From positions 6,015 through 70,014 of the forward strand of contig JAFGEJ010000200.1 in NCBI GenBank assembly GCA_016931655.1: a stretch of DNA of 64,000 nucleotides, read 5' to 3'. The position numbers and the translations under genes are program-made. This document shows positions 10,075 to 35,691 of the stretch, piece by piece (within the stretch, counting starts at the first letter, position 1; every line of letters starts with the position of its first letter). Below the pieces are notes generated by a model that saw only the letters and a program-made list of their open reading frames with translations, made no database searches and was not told the origin of the DNA. Source of the DNA: Phycisphaerae bacterium. GTDB lineage: Bacteria; Planctomycetota; Phycisphaerae; SM23-33.

Positions 10075-10148
10075 CCACAGAGACACAGAGAACTCAGAGA
10101 AAATCATAAGAAATTACGTTGTTCTCTGTGACCTCTGTGTCTCTGTGG
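10075..10148. repeat. Long imperfect hairpin of the CACAGAG family, directly downstream of the GH130 gene
   Basis: CCACAGAGACACAGAGAACTCAGAGAA, about 20-nt AT-rich loop, TTCTCTGTGACCTCTGTGTCTCTGTGG. Same architecture as the elements at 14118, 14790 and 35607. Confidence 0.75.
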
Positions 10149-10161
10149 TGAAATATCCGGG

Positions 10162-11115
10162 TTAATGTCTCAGGCAGGCTTCGTCGTCGCATTCGGTGGC
10201 GGAGTCGATCAGTTCCTCCATGGTCGTCAAGGCCACGCAGATGGACGTGTCGGCGGCGCCGTAGTAGATCTTCACCTCGCCGTCGTCCTCGACGATCGCG
10301 CCGCAGGCGAAGCAGACGTTTCCCACGTCCCCCACGCGCTCGTAGTCGGTTCGCGGGCTGAGCAGCGGTTCCAGGCATCGGCCTATGACCTTCGAGGGAT
10401 CGTTCAGGTCGAGCATCACCGCCCCGATGCGGTAGATCGGCCCGGCGGAGGTCATTTTCACGCCGTGATAGATTTCCAGCCAGCCCTTGTCGGTTTTGAT
10501 CGGCGGCGCGGAGGCGCCGATACGATACTGATCCCAGAACCGCGGGCGCGGGCCGAGCACGTAGTCGCTTTTGCCCCAGTGTTTCAGGTCCGGCGAGTAG
10601 GAAATCCAGATCGCCCCCACGCCGTACCCGAAGGGCCGGTCCAGGCGGGCGTACAGGCCGTTGACCTTTTCGGGGAACAGCACGCCGTCCTTGTTGCCCG
10701 GTTCGGAGACGATGGCGATGCGCTCGTAATGGTGGAAGTCCTCGGTCTTTGCCAGAGCGATGTAATGTCCGTATCCGCTTACCGCCGTGTACATGATGTA
10801 GTATTCCCCCTCGATAACGGTCAGACGGGGGTCTTCGATGCCGTTTTCCTCCCACGAGCGCCAGGGTTCCTGACTGGCTGGGAGCATGCAGGGGCTTTTT
10901 TCCATCTCGAAGTGCAAGCCGTCGCCGCTGCGGGCCAGCGTGAAGAAGGAATACCCCTGCTGTCCCTCGATGCGGATGAGCAGATAATACTCGCCGTCCA
11001 CTTTCACGGGCGTTCCGTTGAAAACGGTGTTGCAGCGGAAGGGCACGTCCTGGAGCGTCAGGATCGGGTTGCGTTCCCATCGGTGCAGCCGGTCGGTTCC
11101 GTGTCGAATAATCAT
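10162..11115 (-). CDS. GH130-family glycoside phosphorylase-like protein (beta-mannoside phosphorylase superfamily)
   Basis: 317 aa, no signal peptide, five-bladed beta-propeller GH130/DUF377-like sequence (RNPILT...GEYYLLIRIEG...DPRLTVIEGEYYIMYTA...). Its start overlaps the upstream paralog's stop by 4 nt. Confidence 0.65.
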   Translation of the reverse strand: MIIRHGTDRLHRWERNPILTLQDVPFRCNTVFNGTPVKVDGEYYLLIRIEGQQGYSFFTLARSGDGLHFEMEKSPCMLPASQEPWRSWEENGIEDPRLTVIEGEYYIMYTAVSGYGHYIALAKTEDFHHYERIAIVSEPGNKDGVLFPEKVNGLYARLDRPFGYGVGAIWISYSPDLKHWGKSDYVLGPRPRFWDQYRIGASAPPIKTDKGWLEIYHGVKMTSAGPIYRIGAVMLDLNDPSKVIGRCLEPLLSPRTDYERVGDVGNVCFACGAIVEDDGEVKIYYGAADTSICVALTTMEELIDSATECDDEACLRH

Positions 11116-12104
11116 TCGTCTTCGTCCTCCGCGTCCCCGCTGAGGTAATCCTGCACGACGGCGCAGGCGAGGCAGAATTCCGCGATTTCATCAATGCGGG
11201 CCGTACCGAGGCAGATGCAGCTGTTGCTCGCGCCGTAGTAAATCCACAGTTCGTGTTCGTGGAGAATCGCCCCGCAGGAAAAGACCATGTTGGGTACGTC
11301 GCCGATGCGCTCGTAGACCTCGCGCGGGCCGATGATCGGGATGTTTGAACGGGCGATGACCTTGGAGGGATCGTCGCGGTCGAGGATGGCGGCTCCCAGT
11401 CGCACGAGCGGCCCGGCGGAGGTGTCCTTCGCGCCGTAGTAGATCAGCAGCCAGCCCTGTTCGATTTCAATGGGAATCGCCGCGGCGCCGATGCGGCTGG
11501 AGTCCCAGTGCCCGCCGCGCGTGGTCATCACGACTTTTTCGTCGCCCCAGTAGGCCAGGTCTTCGGAATAACTGATCCAGATATCCCCGCCGGCGGGTCG
11601 TTTCAGCAGGGCGTATCGGCCGTCGAATTTGCAGGGGAACAGCGCGCCGTTTTTCACGTCCGGCTGGGAGACGTATCCGAGGAACTCGATGGTGTCCCAG
11701 TCGGTGGTGGCGGCCAGCCCCAGCCGCAGGCCGAACTCGCTGTCGGCGAGGTAGGTGATGTAGTACTTTCCGTCCAGGGGCGTGATGCGCGGGTCGCGAA
11801 TGCCGAACGTTTCGTACTGGGCGCGCGGGCCTTCCTTCGGCGGCTGAAGGAACGGCGTGGGGTCCACGGTGAAATTGATGCCGTCCTGGCTGCGGGCGCG
11901 ATAAAACAGATTGTGCCCCTGAAGGCTCTCCACGTTCAGGAGCATCATCAGCTCGCCGTTCCGCCGCACCACGCCGGCGTTGTGGATGTCCGCCACGCGG
12001 AAAGACAGATCCTCCAGGGCAATCAACGGATTGCCCTTCCAGCGATGAATAATGTCAGGACCAGTGGACAGCGACATGTTCGATTTGCCTTTCCGTACCA
12101 ACAC
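11112..12104 (-). CDS. GH130-family glycoside phosphorylase-like protein, tandem paralog
   Basis: 330 aa, collinear with 10162..11115 (GNPLIALEDL...GIRDPRITPLDGKYYITYLA...). The start may be the internal MSLS at 12077. Confidence 0.65.
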   Translation of the reverse strand: MLVRKGKSNMSLSTGPDIIHRWKGNPLIALEDLSFRVADIHNAGVVRRNGELMMLLNVESLQGHNLFYRARSQDGINFTVDPTPFLQPPKEGPRAQYETFGIRDPRITPLDGKYYITYLADSEFGLRLGLAATTDWDTIEFLGYVSQPDVKNGALFPCKFDGRYALLKRPAGGDIWISYSEDLAYWGDEKVVMTTRGGHWDSSRIGAAAIPIEIEQGWLLIYYGAKDTSAGPLVRLGAAILDRDDPSKVIARSNIPIIGPREVYERIGDVPNMVFSCGAILHEHELWIYYGASNSCICLGTARIDEIAEFCLACAVVQDYLSGDAEDEDE

Positions 12105-12190
12105 AGACGGGATATACAGATTCCGTATCTTATTATCGGCAAATCCGGGCGGGGGGTTGACTTACGAATTTCTTGAGACAAAGATGTGGC

Positions 12191-12349
12191 GAAGAGAACA
12201 CGAATTACGCGAATAAAGACGAATTTCACGAATATTTTTTTAAATAGAAAATGTCGCCCTCTGGAACATTCCTTCCGTAGACGATTTGTTTTTTTTATCA
12301 GGAAAATTCGTAACTATTCGTCTTTATTCGCGTAATTCGTGTTCTCTTG
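12191..12349. repeat. Perfect 33-bp inverted repeat pair flanking a roughly 91-bp AT-rich spacer
   Basis: Left arm AAGAGAACACGAATTACGCGAATAAAGACGAAT (12192-12224) is the exact reverse complement of the right arm at 12316-12348. The spacer contains TTCACGAAT. The region ends 6 nt from the LolA-like gene's stop. Confidence 0.85.
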
Positions 12350-33729: not shown

Positions 33730-33825
33730 AGAATACGTTACATTATGAATTTGGCATACTGTACTATTATTACACTACATTACTTCGCTTTTTATTATCC
33801 GAGTATTCCGAGTAATTTGTGTAGT

Positions 33826-34656
33826 TTAATTGTTTTTTTCTCGGACAATTTGAAAAATTGCCAGGCATTGGCGAAGAACGCCTTCCATGTCCTCCAGTGC
33901 GATTTGGCTGGCCGCGTCGGACAGCGCCTTTTCCGGCGTGGGGTGGGTTTCGATGAACAGGCCGTCCGCCCCGGCCGCCATGGCGGCCCGCGCGAGCAGG
34001 GGTGCGTATTCCCGCTGGCCTCCCGAAGCCGACCCCAGGCCGCCGGGTTGCTGGACCGAGTGGGTCGCGTCAAAGACCACCGGGGCATATTCCTGCATCT
34101 GCGGAATCGACCGCATGTCCGTCACCAGGCGGTTGTATCCGAAAAACGTGCCCCGTTCGGTCAGCAGTACGCCGTGGTTGATATAGGCGTTGACTTTCGC
34201 CACGGCGTTTTTCATATCCCACGGGGCCATGAACTGGCCTTTTTTGATGTTGACGGCCTTGCCGGTCTTGCCCGCGGCGATGAGCAGATCGGTCTGGCGG
34301 CACAGAAAGGCGGGGATTTGCAGGCAGTCGACGACCTCGGCTACCGGCTCGGCTTGGGACGGCTCGTGGATGTCCGTCAGGACGGGCACGTGCACCTCGC
34401 GGGCGACCCTCGCCAGCCAATCCAGTCCTTCCTTCATGCCCGGCCCGCGATAGCTCTCGGCGCTGGAACGGTTGGCTTTGTCGAAGCTGGCCTTGAATAC
34501 GTATCCCACGTCCAGCCGGTCGCAGAGTGTCTTCATGTGCCTGGCCACGGCGAGGCACAGGTCGAGACTCTCGGCCATGCAGGGCCCGGCGATCAGGGCC
34601 AGTCGCCCCTCGCCGAACGTCACGTCGCCGACGGCGCACAGATCGGGTTTCGTCAT
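33826..34656 (-). CDS. kdsA: 3-deoxy-8-phosphooctulonate (KDO-8-P) synthase
   Basis: ATG at 34656 preceded by [16 protein letters not shown]...[12 protein letters not shown]... 276 aa. The N-terminal extension of track ORF 33826..34917 was rejected. Confidence 0.88.
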
Positions 34657-35591
34657 ACGGGGGCTCCTTTCCAGGGCCAAAACGGCCCGGGCCAGCCGGG
34701 AGGACTGCCCGGTACGATCAACTTGATTTTGCGGGGCGAGATCGAGATGTCCAGCGGTGTGGTGGGGCCCAGGTCGCCGTCGAGCTGGCAGTGGACGGGT
34801 TTGTCGGACTCCACGCGAATCCGCCGGGCCTGCCGGTAGATCACGTTGCCCTTGAGCGGATGGAGGCGCAGGAGCGTCCAGGCGGCGTGCAGCAGCAGGC
34901 GGGCCTGCTGGTCGCACTCAAAGACGACCAGGTCCAGCAGGCCGTCGTCGAAGCGGGCGTCGCGGCAGATGCGCAGGCCGGAGGAATAGCGGGAGATGTT
35001 ACCCACGAACACCAGACCCTGCCCCTGGAAGATCGTTTCGCCGTCGGCCTGCACGAGCAATCGTGGAAAATTGTGTTCCCAGAACGTCCGCCAGATCGGC
35101 CAAAAGTAGCTCAGGTGGGAGATGTGCCCCGTTCGGGTCCGGCTGACGCGACGGACGACTTCGGCGTCGAATCCCACGCCGAGGATCGAGTGGAAGCTCA
35201 GGCCGTTAATCATGCCGATGTCACAGGCCATGATCTCGCCCGATTTGAGCAGCCCGACCAGATCGGCTGGTCGTTTGGGGATGGACAGTTCCTTGGCCAG
35301 CAGGTTTTCCGTGCCTGCCCGGACGGCCAGCAGCGGAACGTTCGTGTCGGCCAGCCCGTTGGCGACCTCGTTGACCGTGCCGTCCCCGCCCCAGGCGATC
35401 ACCGCCGAGGCCTGCGGCGCAATGGACTTCGCGTACCGGGTGGCGTCGGCGACGGCCTGGGTGACGTATTCCACGACCTCCCAGCCCGCCTGGCGGATTT
35501 CCCGGCGCAGCTCGCCCAGCAGGCGCTTCTGCCCGCCGTATCCGCTCCGCGGGTTGATCACGACGTGAACGGGTTTTCCGGTTTCAATCAT
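34653..35591 (-). CDS. Diacylglycerol-kinase-catalytic-domain lipid kinase (YegS/BmrU-like)
   Basis: [11 protein letters not shown]...[11 protein letters not shown] is a DAGK_cat signature. Its stop overlaps the kdsA start (ATGA). ATG 35591 chosen; GTG 35612 would extend into a hairpin element. Confidence 0.7.
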
Positions 35592-35606
35592 ATTGGTAAT
35601 AAGGCT

Positions 35607-35691
35607 CGACACAGAGTTCCTGAGAAACAGAGAAAAGAAGAGAAACGTTCTTTTCTAAAGGTATTCTCTGTTCCTCTGGAACTCTGTGTCG
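35607..35691. repeat. Long hairpin of the CACAGAG family in a divergent promoter region
   Basis: CGACACAGAGTTCCTGAGAAACAGAGAA, loop, TTCTCTGTTCCTCTGGAACTCTGTGTCG. Confidence 0.75.

Follow-up and report, generated by a model that had tools for sequence, protein, structure and literature searches.

Candidate STRR-type hairpins built from CACAGAG tandem units in a Phycisphaerae genome fragment, in distant bacterial phyla and in phages

Results

Hairpin copies in the window and their neighbouring genes

The window, a stretch of 64,000 nucleotides of contig JAFGEJ010000200.1 from a Phycisphaerae bacterium, contains at least six intergenic hairpins of one family. Gene contexts were taken from Pfam-based gene calling. 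Copy 1 (10071..10152) separates a minus-strand GH130 gene, whose stop is at 10162, from the next gene on that strand. Copy 2 (14115..14205) is flanked by divergent genes for a VTT/DedA-like protein (minus) and a 2Fe-2S ferredoxin (plus), and copy 3 (14786..14867) is in a convergent position, with the ferredoxin stop (14710) on one side and the 3' end of tRNA-Leu(gag), at 14905, on the other. Copy 4 (35605..35693) is again divergent, with a DAGK/YegS-like kinase encoded to one side (minus) and a TPR + RNAP alpha-CTD protein to the other (plus). These four had been described in an earlier note, whose coordinates were accurate to within a few bases and whose assignment of two copies to terminator positions and two to divergent regions was upheld. 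To its "at least 4 copies" we added copy A (9065..9168), flanked by two minus-strand genes, and copy B (15092..15200), which separates the stop of minus-strand aroA (15273) from the promoter-like site of tRNA-Leu. Several copies of the family are thus present in this Phycisphaerae fragment, between housekeeping genes.

Model R1, trained on 73 elements that all came from other genomes, matched all six copies: copy 1 with 77.3 bits (E 8e-19, both strands), copy 2 with 51.5 bits (E 8e-12), copy 3 with 73.6 bits (E 8e-18), copy 4 with 46.9 bits (E 1.4e-10), copy A with 19.9 bits (E 3e-3) and copy B with 21.9 bits (E 8.5e-4). Copies 1 and 3 are of the CCACAGAGACACAGAG subtype and about 85% identical, loop included, as counted from the alignment. 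Copy 2 has CACAAAG in six of its six units, a subtype that also occurs in foreign loci L109 (2837-2900) and L146 (828-914). Copy 4, of the CGACACAGAG...CTGAGAA subtype, mixes CACAGAG, CCTGAGA and ACAGAGA units. These unit counts correct the earlier description of the arms as CACAGAG/CACAAAG units for copies 2 and 4. Copies A and B belong to the copy-4 subtype and are about 95% identical over about 105 nt, again with the loop, between unrelated flanks; the left arm of copy A has about 15-19 extra nt (CCCCTTGGGGGCAGGCTCC). The A and B pair indicates that whole elements, loop too, have been copied to unlinked sites.

A hairpin of like build at 12192..12348, flanked by two minus-strand genes, has an ACGAAT unit with a period of 9-10, 33-nt arms of 100% complementarity and a 91-nt loop. 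As it scores only 9.4 bits with R1, we assign it to the STRR-type class discussed below and place it outside the CACAGAG family. The window also contains a solo array, (GGGACTA)x3, at 20305-20326.

Folding, unit architecture and polarity

The strong folding of copies 1 to 4 was confirmed, with RNA minimum free energies of -43.2 to -50.4 kcal/mol on either strand against -15 to -23 kcal/mol for their shuffles (z = -7.6 to -11.9; 0 of 200 folded as well). Their ungapped inverted repeats are 10074-10101 / 10122-10149 in copy 1 (28 nt, 3 mismatches, 20-nt loop), 14118-14151 / 14169-14202 in copy 2 (34 nt, 5 mismatches, 17-nt loop), 14788-14824 / 14829-14865 in copy 3 (37 nt, 5 mismatches) and 35607-35634 / 35664-35691 in copy 4 (28 nt, 2 mismatches, 29-nt loop). 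TRF resolved the arms as tandem arrays with a period of 8-9 and 2.4-3.0 copies. Exact CACAGAG occurs 16 times in the window (3.9 expected), 14 of them inside elements, and the pattern CACARAGNNCACARAG, with at most two mismatches, 9 times (0.86 expected). The family unit reads as the octamer CACAGAGR.

The two arrays of an element are convergent, and either strand reads 5'-(purine-rich units)n - loop - (pyrimidine-rich units)n-3'. Of 379 CACAGAG-type arrays in the fetched foreign loci, at least 298 stand in convergent pairs, and the same build was found there with many other units in 55 hairpins (period 7 in 37, 8 in 15 and 9 in 3). The 5' arm has more G than C in 50 of 54 tandem-unit hairpins (p = 4e-11), and CACAGAG in viral stretches is forward in 38 cases and reverse in 4. 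The polarity of the class is fixed and the same on both strands, with the purine/G-rich arm 5'. The flanks are A-rich 5' and T-rich 3', with the consensus TT[A/C]A-CC.

Unit cores are mismatched in only 0-7% of elements, with one A-or-G core position reaching 20%, and the spacers between units in about 50%. This contrast looks like sequence-specific constraint on each unit and not like selection for overall stem stability; a role of the RNA that is purely structural would not predict such constraint. At the stem foot, 56 sequences have an A-U pair, 14 have G-C and 3 have no pair, and pairing is maintained at this variable position. G-U and A-C mismatches are equally common on the sense strand (82 and 79), which also speaks against an RNA role, but this test is dominated by spacers and therefore weak.

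Near-invariant cores, separated by 1-nt spacers that are free and almost independent between the arms, would suit arrays of double-stranded DNA binding sites, in which each 7-8-bp unit is bound by a protein polymerising along the array, the convergent layout reflects protein-protein contacts and the hairpin is incidental. The ribbon-helix-helix omega protein of pSM19035 polymerises on heptads in this way, and MetJ on 8-bp met boxes. Periods 7-8 predominate, convergent arrays are far commoner than divergent ones, and the many unit types would fit many binding specificities. However, palindromy runs beyond the units into element-specific flanks and inner segments, which covary, and the loop length varies from 4 to more than 60 nt. 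In addition, one small phage genome holds several unit types, the elements avoid promoter-only (divergent) regions, and no cognate gene was found nearby in the 157 foreign loci that served for neighbourhood checks. We consider binding arrays, together with the contacts that they entail, rather unlikely.

Position relative to genes

Elements lay between co-directional genes in 120 cases, convergent genes in 25 and divergent genes in 8, against a background of 64/19/17% (p = 1.4e-4); by these counts 95% of elements abut the 3' end of a gene. From an element to the next gene start, the median gap measures about 16-20 nt. In a phage, two copies enclose the major capsid gene, one on each side.

Adjacency to 3' ends, and a very stable hairpin with an A-rich 5' and a T-rich 3' flank on both strands, would be expected of bidirectional intrinsic terminators or insulators, and the pyrimidine-rich 3' arm would presumably form a weak RNA:DNA hybrid. 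Nevertheless, the scan with a terminator consensus passed no window copy, a sense-side T-tract occurs in only 21 of 120 related elements (about 18-22%), and the ferredoxin gene has its own small terminator-like hairpin at 14732-14748, before copy 3. The short gap leaves no room for a promoter, so efficient termination would silence downstream genes, those of phage late operons included. The view that the hairpins are "not simply terminators" was borne out; on the negative scan and the scarce T-tracts we rejected identity with canonical terminators, and termination or insulation as the sole selected role is distinctly unlikely.

Spread across genomes and phages

We scanned GTDB species genomes and viral sequences for a 16-nt arm core with its partner. 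The combination was found at at least 119 loci of GTDB species genomes, covering at least 15 phyla (a lower bound, read off record titles), and in 38 viral stretches. Cultured isolates are among the carriers, from Sorangium (for example So ce134), Magnetospirillum (M. sulfuroxidans J10), Propionivibrio (P. limicola DSM 6832) and Roseateles. Together with the two copies added in the window to give six, these genome loci and viral stretches establish as genuine the dispersed intergenic hairpin family that had been proposed.

Phage contigs L126, L138 and L143 have genes that are about 84% identical and hairpins whose unit types differ at orthologous junctions (CAGATC-, TGTCATCC-, CACAGAG- and GTAATTT-type). 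Within a single phage genome, one unit type recurs at several junctions. Related phages retain the hairpin at a given junction and exchange its unit type.

The spread also bears on whether the elements are a functionless by-product of mutation, in which slippage builds arrays, fold-back or template switching makes palindromes and junctions are merely harmless. Replication slippage favours units of about 7 nt (Mrazek 2007, as cited in PMC4679880), many bacteria have an excess of heptamer simple-sequence repeats, solo arrays such as (GGGACTA)x3 occur, and units can be homogeneous inside single elements, as in copy 2. On the other hand, independent origins cannot account for an identical 16-nt core in more than 100 species; by our estimate, chance would give fewer than one match to the scanned pattern. 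Moreover, adjacent spacers are not copies of each other, nor are the two arms, dispersed copies have loops in common, and the strong polarity demands an additional assumption. We regard this explanation as unlikely.

The earlier note had likened the hairpins to the REP/BIME family and suggested a link to RAYT, an IS200/IS605-like Y1 transposase. REP/REPIN elements mobilised by RAYT would account for plentiful intergenic hairpins of 70-110 nt and for the lack of a target-site duplication at copies A and B, and the same hairpin from both strands would suit an enzyme acting on single-strand DNA. However, REPs have GTAG/CGTC tags, are small palindromes themselves, are lineage-specific and are accompanied by a RAYT gene (PMC3733652), whereas here the tag is absent and the flank consensus is a different one, the arms are tandem arrays and the core crosses phyla. 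No RAYT or other Y1/HUH gene is among the window ORFs, and none recurs near the 157 foreign loci. We therefore rejected REP/RAYT identity, and mobilisation of this kind is very improbable.

Descent from a DDE insertion sequence that has the same terminal inverted repeats, as in classical MITEs, would likewise explain inverted termini, a small size and the presence of several copies. Repeated motifs in subterminal positions are common transposase-binding sites. Against this, no target-site duplication is visible, no transposase was found in the window, between or near copies, or recurring near the 157 loci, and the outer flanks are palindromic, not directly repeated. A clear MITE identity was rejected, and this origin is scarcely credible. 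Neither an enzyme nor any other gene is linked to the elements in the window ORFs or the 157 loci, and no empty site was seen, so that mobility is argued from copy similarity and turnover.

Discussion

We assign the elements to the STRR-type hairpins, a known and little-studied class in which tandem repeats of 7-9 nt form convergent pairs; the earlier note had not named this class. Our best reading, which we hold with about equal belief and doubt, is a fast-turning-over dispersed palindromic DNA element that lies 3' of genes and gives a bidirectional RNA hairpin. The element would be non-autonomous DNA that owes its spread and turnover to a trans-acting activity able to recognise or make the unit; phages would be its likely carriers from host to host, and it would persist mostly 3' of genes. 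In transcripts, the hairpin of 25-35 bp, flanked by A-rich sequence on its 5' side and U-rich sequence on its 3' side, could form a two-way transcript-end or intercistronic structure, act as a barrier to 3' exonucleases and read-through, and probably serve as an RNase III substrate; in such a bidirectional role it would not be an efficient canonical terminator. The functions proposed in the earlier note, as mRNA stabiliser, protein-binding site or transposase target, are likewise conjectural. Two of the six window copies occupy divergent promoter regions, and for these a 3'-end role cannot apply.

Phage and operon mRNAs contain intercistronic stabiliser hairpins and RNase III sites, for example the malE-malF REP and the RNase III sites that flank gene 10 of T7. 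These are stable hairpins that bracket highly expressed cistrons, as is the case here for the phage major capsid gene. Unlike the present family, they consist of unique sequences or REPs, are not built from units and are not common to several phyla. With REP, BIME and REPIN-RAYT systems the elements have in common high-copy intergenic palindromes, often between co-directional genes (REPINs being 70-110-nt hairpins), and proposed roles in mRNA stability, but they lack the REP features given above. The TAACTGA heptamer direct repeats of Beggiatoaceae, Cyanobacteria and Bacteroidetes (MacGregor 2015, PMC4679880) are similar in that one exact short intergenic unit is common to distant phyla, and their horizontal spread is suspected "but no mechanism is evident" (PMC4679880). 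In contrast to the convergent hairpins, nearly all are direct arrays (169 sets, against 1 indirect set) that shortly precede a start codon.

The STRR units of cyanobacteria, about 7 nt long, were reportedly given by Mazel et al. in 1990 as CCCCAGT, TTGGTCA and CAACAGT, heptamers that differ from the octamer CACAGAGR. Both kinds form intergenic or intercistronic hairpins with tandem-repeat arms. In the hupS-hupL intergenic region, STRR hairpins are "usually made up of 7 bp repeats", and transcript stabilisation or translational coupling has only been suggested for them (PMC2670836). To judge from the title of Vioque 1997, cited in PMC2858038, heterocyst-forming cyanobacteria also have STRRs within their RNase P RNA gene. 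STRRs are regarded as a cyanobacterial trait, whereas the present host is a planctomycete and the core is found over at least 15 phyla and in phages.

The GGGAATC heptamers of Xanthomonas and GGGGA(C/T)T heptamers of Nostoc likewise occur in tandem and combine conserved positions with free ones (Rehm et al. 2015, PMC4692102). The GGGAATC arrays form 70-75 convergent pairs per genome, which are potential stem-loops, favour co-directional (aligned) ORF pairs, are depleted between divergent ORFs, and differ in length and sequence at the same junction between close relatives (PMC4692102). The CACAGAG elements resemble them in unit design, convergent pairing, co-directional bias and junction turnover. 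The G-tract units were read as G-quadruplex formers, with four units preferred (PMC4692102), whereas arms here have 2-4 units and CACAGAGR is without G-runs, so that G-quadruplex formation cannot explain the class. What the present comparison appears to add to these systems is a near-unchanged CACAGAG version common to more than 100 species and to phages.

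Hairpins of the window and their setting

The earlier note, based on the sequence alone, had described four REP/BIME-like hairpins in the window. All four (copies 1 to 4; 10071-10152, 14115-14205, 14786-14867 and 35605-35693) were present where it had placed them, and fold and tandem-repeat analyses confirmed them as hairpins with tandem-unit arms. Its count of at least four copies rose to six in a hairpin scan, which added copy A (9065-9168) and copy B (15092-15200). Except for two other families, copies 1 to 4 were the top short-range inverted repeats in the window. Their arms of 28-37 nt contained 2-5 mismatches, the minimum free energies were -43 to -50 kcal/mol on both strands (z -7.6 to -11.9), and 0 of 200 dinucleotide shuffles folded equally well. 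TRF detected a period of 8-9 with 2.4-3.0 copies in both arms of copies 1-3 and in the right arms of A and B, and three 9-nt units were seen in copy 4 by inspection. The heptamer CACAGAG was found 16 times in the window versus 3.9 expected, and 14 of these 16 were inside the elements.

Copies A and B were ~95% identical over ~105 nt including the loop, had unrelated flanks and belonged to the copy-4 subtype. Copies 1 and 3 were ~85% identical with the loop counted in, and all six units of copy 2 were CACAAAG. The hairpin scan also located an ACGAAT-unit hairpin of the same build at 12192-12348. When the window was searched against Rfam at gathering thresholds, its two tRNAs passed and no family matched the hairpins; by E-value, the hairpins matched eukaryotic miRNA-precursor models alone, all far under the gathering scores.

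Among the Pfam-scanned ORFs of the window were core housekeeping genes, for example aroA, dnaG, mnmE, secA, cysG/hemD, DAHP synthase, two GH130 genes, two-component systems and type II/IV secretion ATPases. Co-directional gene pairs flanked A, copy 1, the ACGAAT hairpin and B, and copies 2 and 4 were in divergent contexts. Copy 3 was in a convergent context, with the ferredoxin stop on one side and the tRNA-Leu 3' end on the other. The ferredoxin is 100% identical to a Phycisphaerae MAG protein in NCBI; its gene has its own small terminator-like hairpin at 14732-14748, ahead of copy 3, and the tRNA-Leu gene has a promoter-like site at 15003-15031. Adjoining copy 4, the gene at 35884-37215 codes for an unusual protein in which TPR repeats precede two RNA polymerase alpha C-terminal domains. 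A low-GC island (54700-56450; 49% vs ~60%) carries a D12-class N6-adenine DNA methyltransferase gene (54760-55701) and, convergent to it, an ORF of 245 aa without a Pfam match; the two may be a restriction-modification pair that was acquired. On the minus strand, 18-nt periodic repeats at 46340-46470 apparently code for a small Lys/Ala-rich basic protein (MAKKKAAKKAAKKKVAKKK...), with a GGAGGTG ribosome-binding site upstream; the predicted product resembles histone H1-like or nucleoid proteins.

Further hairpins were observed in the window. A second family, TGTCATCCTGAGCGAAG...CTTCGCTCAGGATGACA, occurs at 13210-13317, 24098-24218 and 40622-40754, and is presumably the 'first family' of the earlier note. 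It was also found in two unrelated genome loci (L073 6852-6923 and L044 3085-3173) and at a gene junction of phage contig L138, and thus crosses taxa too. The gap between a PBP4-like gene and secA holds a nested inverted repeat (21876-22011), GTGTCGCGGGCCTCTGGCCCGCGC...GCGCGGG..CCCGCGACAC, whose family recurs between genes in a related Phycisphaerae MAG (L158 14980-15083). In the 70-nt gap after mnmE (20305-20340), a perfect (GGGACTA)x3 array is followed by a single inverted unit, AGTCCC, which looks like a minimal example of the tandem-unit hairpins described below, with the G-rich arm first.

Distribution in other genomes and viruses

The earlier note had proposed a genome-wide pattern search for more copies. 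We scanned one genome per GTDB species for CCACAGAGACACAGAG followed, after a gap of 25-55 nt, by CTCTGTG, and obtained at least 119 loci, against a chance expectation that we estimate at <1. A further 38 viral stretches with the CACAGAG hairpin pattern were found in IMG/VR. As labelled, the genome loci belong to Acidobacteriota, Planctomycetota, Verrucomicrobiota, Chloroflexota, Alpha-, Beta- and Gammaproteobacteria, Myxococcota, Desulfobacterota-type lineages, Bacteroidota, Chlorobiota, Calditrichota, Gemmatimonadota, Nitrospirota, Chlamydiota, Actinomycetota and Bacillota. Cultured carriers were two Sorangium, Magnetospirillum sulfuroxidans, Propionivibrio limicola and Roseateles oligotrophus. 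This phylum list may be inflated by MAG mis-binning; at least four phyla are secured by the isolates and the window itself. The match between foreign loci and the window was limited to the elements, and the flanks differed.

A covariance model built from foreign copies only (R1; 73 sequences of the genome loci) recovered all six window copies and gave no other convincing match. The scores were 77 bits for copy 1, 74 for copy 3, 51.5 for copy 2 and 47 for copy 4 (E 1e-10 to 1e-18), and 20-22 bits for A and B (E ~1e-3). An intergenic hairpin, GCCCCAAAGGGGCGACAGC...GCTGCCGCCCCTTCGGGGC, between the aroA start region and dnaG (16576-16635) was matched weakly by R1, at 17.8 bits.

A metagenome scan for a 32-mer that is particular to copies A and B had 0 matches, CACAGAG 15-mers were not found in the published literature searched, and no cultured phage or plasmid was matched in BLAST by a consensus element, a query that was probably masked by the low-complexity filter. 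One copy (L093 6309-6404) comes from a contig of 628 kb that was binned as a Methanotrichaceae archaeon; the family crosses domains if this binning is right. In a Planctomycetales MAG (L083 2024-2198), entire CACAGAG hairpins are repeated head-to-tail with a period of ~103 nt. In four loci of relatives (L158-L161), synteny with the window was not kept and the ferredoxin gene is within the isc operon; L158 bears other hairpin families. A 23S_rRNA_IVP (four-helix-bundle) gene is located between hscB and hscA of the isc operon in L160 (7618-7989) and is absent from the closer relative L158.

Conserved cores and free spacers

The consensus element consists of an A-rich flank, TT[A/C]A, CC-ACAGAG-R-CACAGAG-R(N)-CACAGAG-AAA, a loop and the mirror image, and conservation extends to positions outside the selection pattern. 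Position -1 was A in 80% and G in 19%; it formed an A-U pair in 56 sequences and a G-C pair in 14, and was broken in 3, so that 96% were matched compared with 66% under independence (p = 1e-9). The 1-nt spacers between units are purines on the own strand of each arm, and were mismatched in ~50% of elements, near independence. Unit-core positions were mismatched in 0-7% of elements, except for one at which either A or G occurs (the CACGGAG variant), with 20%. These rates indicate that the core is constrained as sequence and that the spacer is free of even a pairing constraint. In a comparison aimed at RNA-level selection, sense-strand mismatches were G-U in 82 and A-C in 79 cases; spacer positions, whose mismatches are necessarily symmetric, dominated these counts. 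A strict regular expression classed 298 CACAGAG-type arrays in the loci as convergently paired, 5 as divergent only and 76 as unpaired.

A wider class of polar tandem-unit hairpins

The loci contained 160 hairpins beyond the selected copies, and 55 of them had tandem-unit arms, with a period of 7 in 37, 8 in 15 and 9 in 3. The units included GGGCAGT, GCATGGG, GTAATTT, GATTTTG, CGCAAAG, GGATGAA, GAATGCG, TAGGCTG, GGAACCG and GTCGTTG. Because a reverse-complemented palindrome retains its arm order, this order is a strand-independent property. Among the tandem-unit hairpins, the 5' arm had more G than C in 50 versus 4 cases (p = 4e-11); the same comparison gave 55 versus 38 for hairpins without tandem units. 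For CACAGAG, the arms were in the forward arrangement in 38 viral stretches and in the reversed one in 4 (p = 6e-8). The flanks (213 arms) showed the same polarity as the arms, being A-rich on the 5' side and T-rich on the 3' side.

Reverse-polarity elements, (CTCTGTG)n-loop-(CACAGAG)n, were located at L162 1179-1263, L163 4175-4249, L164 6879-6931 and L165 623-695. Inspection of the flanks, made by eye and not by gene calling, placed those of L162-L164 between apparent start codons of divergent phage genes, a location in which each 5' UTR would have sense (CACAGAG)n right before the Shine-Dalgarno sequence.

Genomic position and comparison with known element types

After deduplication, tandem-unit hairpins were in co-directional contexts in 120 cases, convergent in 25 and divergent in 8, compared with 64/19/17% for background gaps of at least 60 nt (chi-square p = 1.4e-4). 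The depletion in divergent regions is not visible within the window, since two of its six copies are divergent. Flanking-ORF gaps had a median of ~16-22 nt as measured with a crude ORF caller, which sets each start at the start codon farthest upstream. In two lineages, the phage major capsid gene is bracketed by copies.

The REP/BIME-like reading of the earlier note was not supported. A REP is a palindrome of 20-40 bp that bears an unpaired GTAG or CGTC tag at one of its ends, and its genome has one RAYT (Y1/HUH) gene, typically with repeats on either side. No GTAG or CGTC tag was present beside any window copy, the flank consensus of the 213 arms being A-rich, TT[A/C]A, CC. The Pfam-scanned window ORFs included no transposase, RAYT or other HUH (Y1) protein, no RAYT was a recurrent neighbour in the 157 foreign loci, and no transposase was found near copies in ~1.2 Mb of loci. 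The gene families recurring beside elements in these 157 loci were ABC transporters, response regulators and kinases alone; as these are common families, they point to no linked enzyme. MITEs have a target-site duplication around their terminal inverted repeats and a cognate autonomous insertion sequence with matching ends. The unrelated flanks of A and B are without direct repeats, and flanks across the loci extend the palindrome and are not directly repeated.

The statement that the hairpins are not simply terminators was borne out: a consensus terminator scan of 8900-16800 flagged no copy in that range. Intrinsic terminators combine a short, GC-rich stem with a loop of 3-8 nt and have a U-tract immediately after the hairpin; the stems here are 25-37 bp, and a T-tract followed the element in 21/120 on the sense strand and 27/120 on the antisense strand. 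The elements thus lack at least one tested defining feature of each of the REP/RAYT, classical MITE and canonical terminator kinds. Chi sites, DnaA boxes, integron attC, elemental pause signals and Shine-Dalgarno mimics were also considered, and were dropped as general explanations because they misfit the many other unit types.

Turnover at phage junctions

Three phage contigs (L126, L138 and L143), whose genes are ~84% identical, have a hairpin at all junctions common to the three and at most others. At orthologous junctions, the unit types differ between the phages. At junction 2, L126 has a CAGATC-type hairpin, L138 a TGTCATCC...GGATGACA-type and L143 a CACAGAG-type; at junction 3, both L126 and L138 have CACAGAG, and L143 has GTAATTT. 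One unit type is repeated at several junctions inside a single phage genome. The hairpin is kept across the three phages and its sequence is not, though the sequence is common within a genome. For the pair L079 and L092, compared as chromosomal filled and empty sites, the downstream contexts differed.

In L138 (~4198-4279) and in L143 (alignment columns 4440-4530), a GTCGTTG-unit hairpin is inside a conserved apparent coding stretch, which we take to be a putative cell-wall hydrolase gene; the insert of L126 at this point is a different one. Such inserts add no stop codons because one arm is without T and the other without A.

Interpretation

The CACAGAG hairpins are a dispersed multi-copy family with a convergent tandem-unit architecture and a distribution across phyla and phages, and they display polarity, core-versus-spacer conservation, a gene-3'-end bias and turnover of unit type. 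We infer that some trans-acting process copies and replaces these elements at the DNA level and that, when transcribed, they serve in both directions as hairpins at transcript ends or between cistrons.

The polarity favours either a single-stranded form of the element, RNA or ssDNA, as the relevant one or a directional protein array. In RNA, a candidate rationale is that the pyrimidine-rich arm would be made last and paired at once; this would hide a putative Rho-loading site, and the RNA:DNA hybrid would be weak. The near-invariant cores and free spacers are the main observation that a purely structural role leaves unexplained, and they keep the protein-array and dedicated-machinery readings alive. 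We consider it unlikely that the tandem-unit hairpins form a separate class of mobile DNA, present across bacteria and borne by phages, that has machinery of its own and CACAGAGR as its most widespread 'allele'. Such machinery would recognise a 7-8-nt unit on single-stranded DNA or would synthesise the unit, for example by templated repeat addition and then snap-back copying. Either type would explain the 5'-purine/3'-pyrimidine polarity, the invariant cores with free spacers and the wholesale swaps of unit type at the same junction.

Short intergenic repeats of bacteria are lineage-specific as a rule. Here, a 16-nt non-coding core recurs in the same layout in Planctomycetota, Acidobacteriota, Chloroflexota, Pseudomonadota, Myxococcota, Chlamydiota, one archaeal bin and phages. 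Either a tiny element has spread horizontally over a very wide range, or a shared but unnamed constraint is at work. The elements are common enough to matter for operon-level expression models, terminator prediction and gene calling; spurious ORFs traverse the arms because one strand is without T and the other without A. The hairpins may also influence MAG assembly.

Comparison with described tandem-repeat hairpins

Heptamer simple-sequence repeats are over-represented in many bacteria according to Mrazek 2007, as cited in PMC4679880 and PMC4692102. The STRR of cyanobacteria form intercistronic hairpins, usually of 7 bp repeats, with unexplained function (PMC2670836). In Xanthomonas, 70-75 convergent GGGAATC pairs per genome lie between aligned ORFs and are depleted between divergent ORFs; the arrays differ among close relatives and have been read as G-quadruplex formers (PMC4692102). 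TAACTGA repeats are common to distant phyla, by a mechanism not evident to the authors (PMC4679880).

The window copies have both the tandem-array arms and the convergent stem-loop arrangement of STRR-type hairpins (convergent 7-9-nt tandem arrays), and the hairpins across the loci have the preference of this kind for co-directional gene pairs and its depletion between divergent ORFs. The CACAGAGR family, with its octamer unit, joins this kind. Our results link STRR hairpins, Xanthomonas GGGAATC pairs and TAACTGA repeats into a single class with testable rules: a period of 7-8, convergent arrays, a purine-rich arm ahead of the other, unit cores that are invariant next to spacers that are free, and rapid turnover of unit type. 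The G-quadruplex heptamer subtype of Xanthomonas and Nostoc has G3-4 tracts and favours four units (PMC4692102); the CACAGAGR/CACAAAGR arrays have 2-4 units per arm without G-runs, and thus G-quadruplex formation is not the general explanation of the class. The CACAGAGR octamer is unable to form a G4, and the host range of its family is far wider than that of the described STRR-type repeats.
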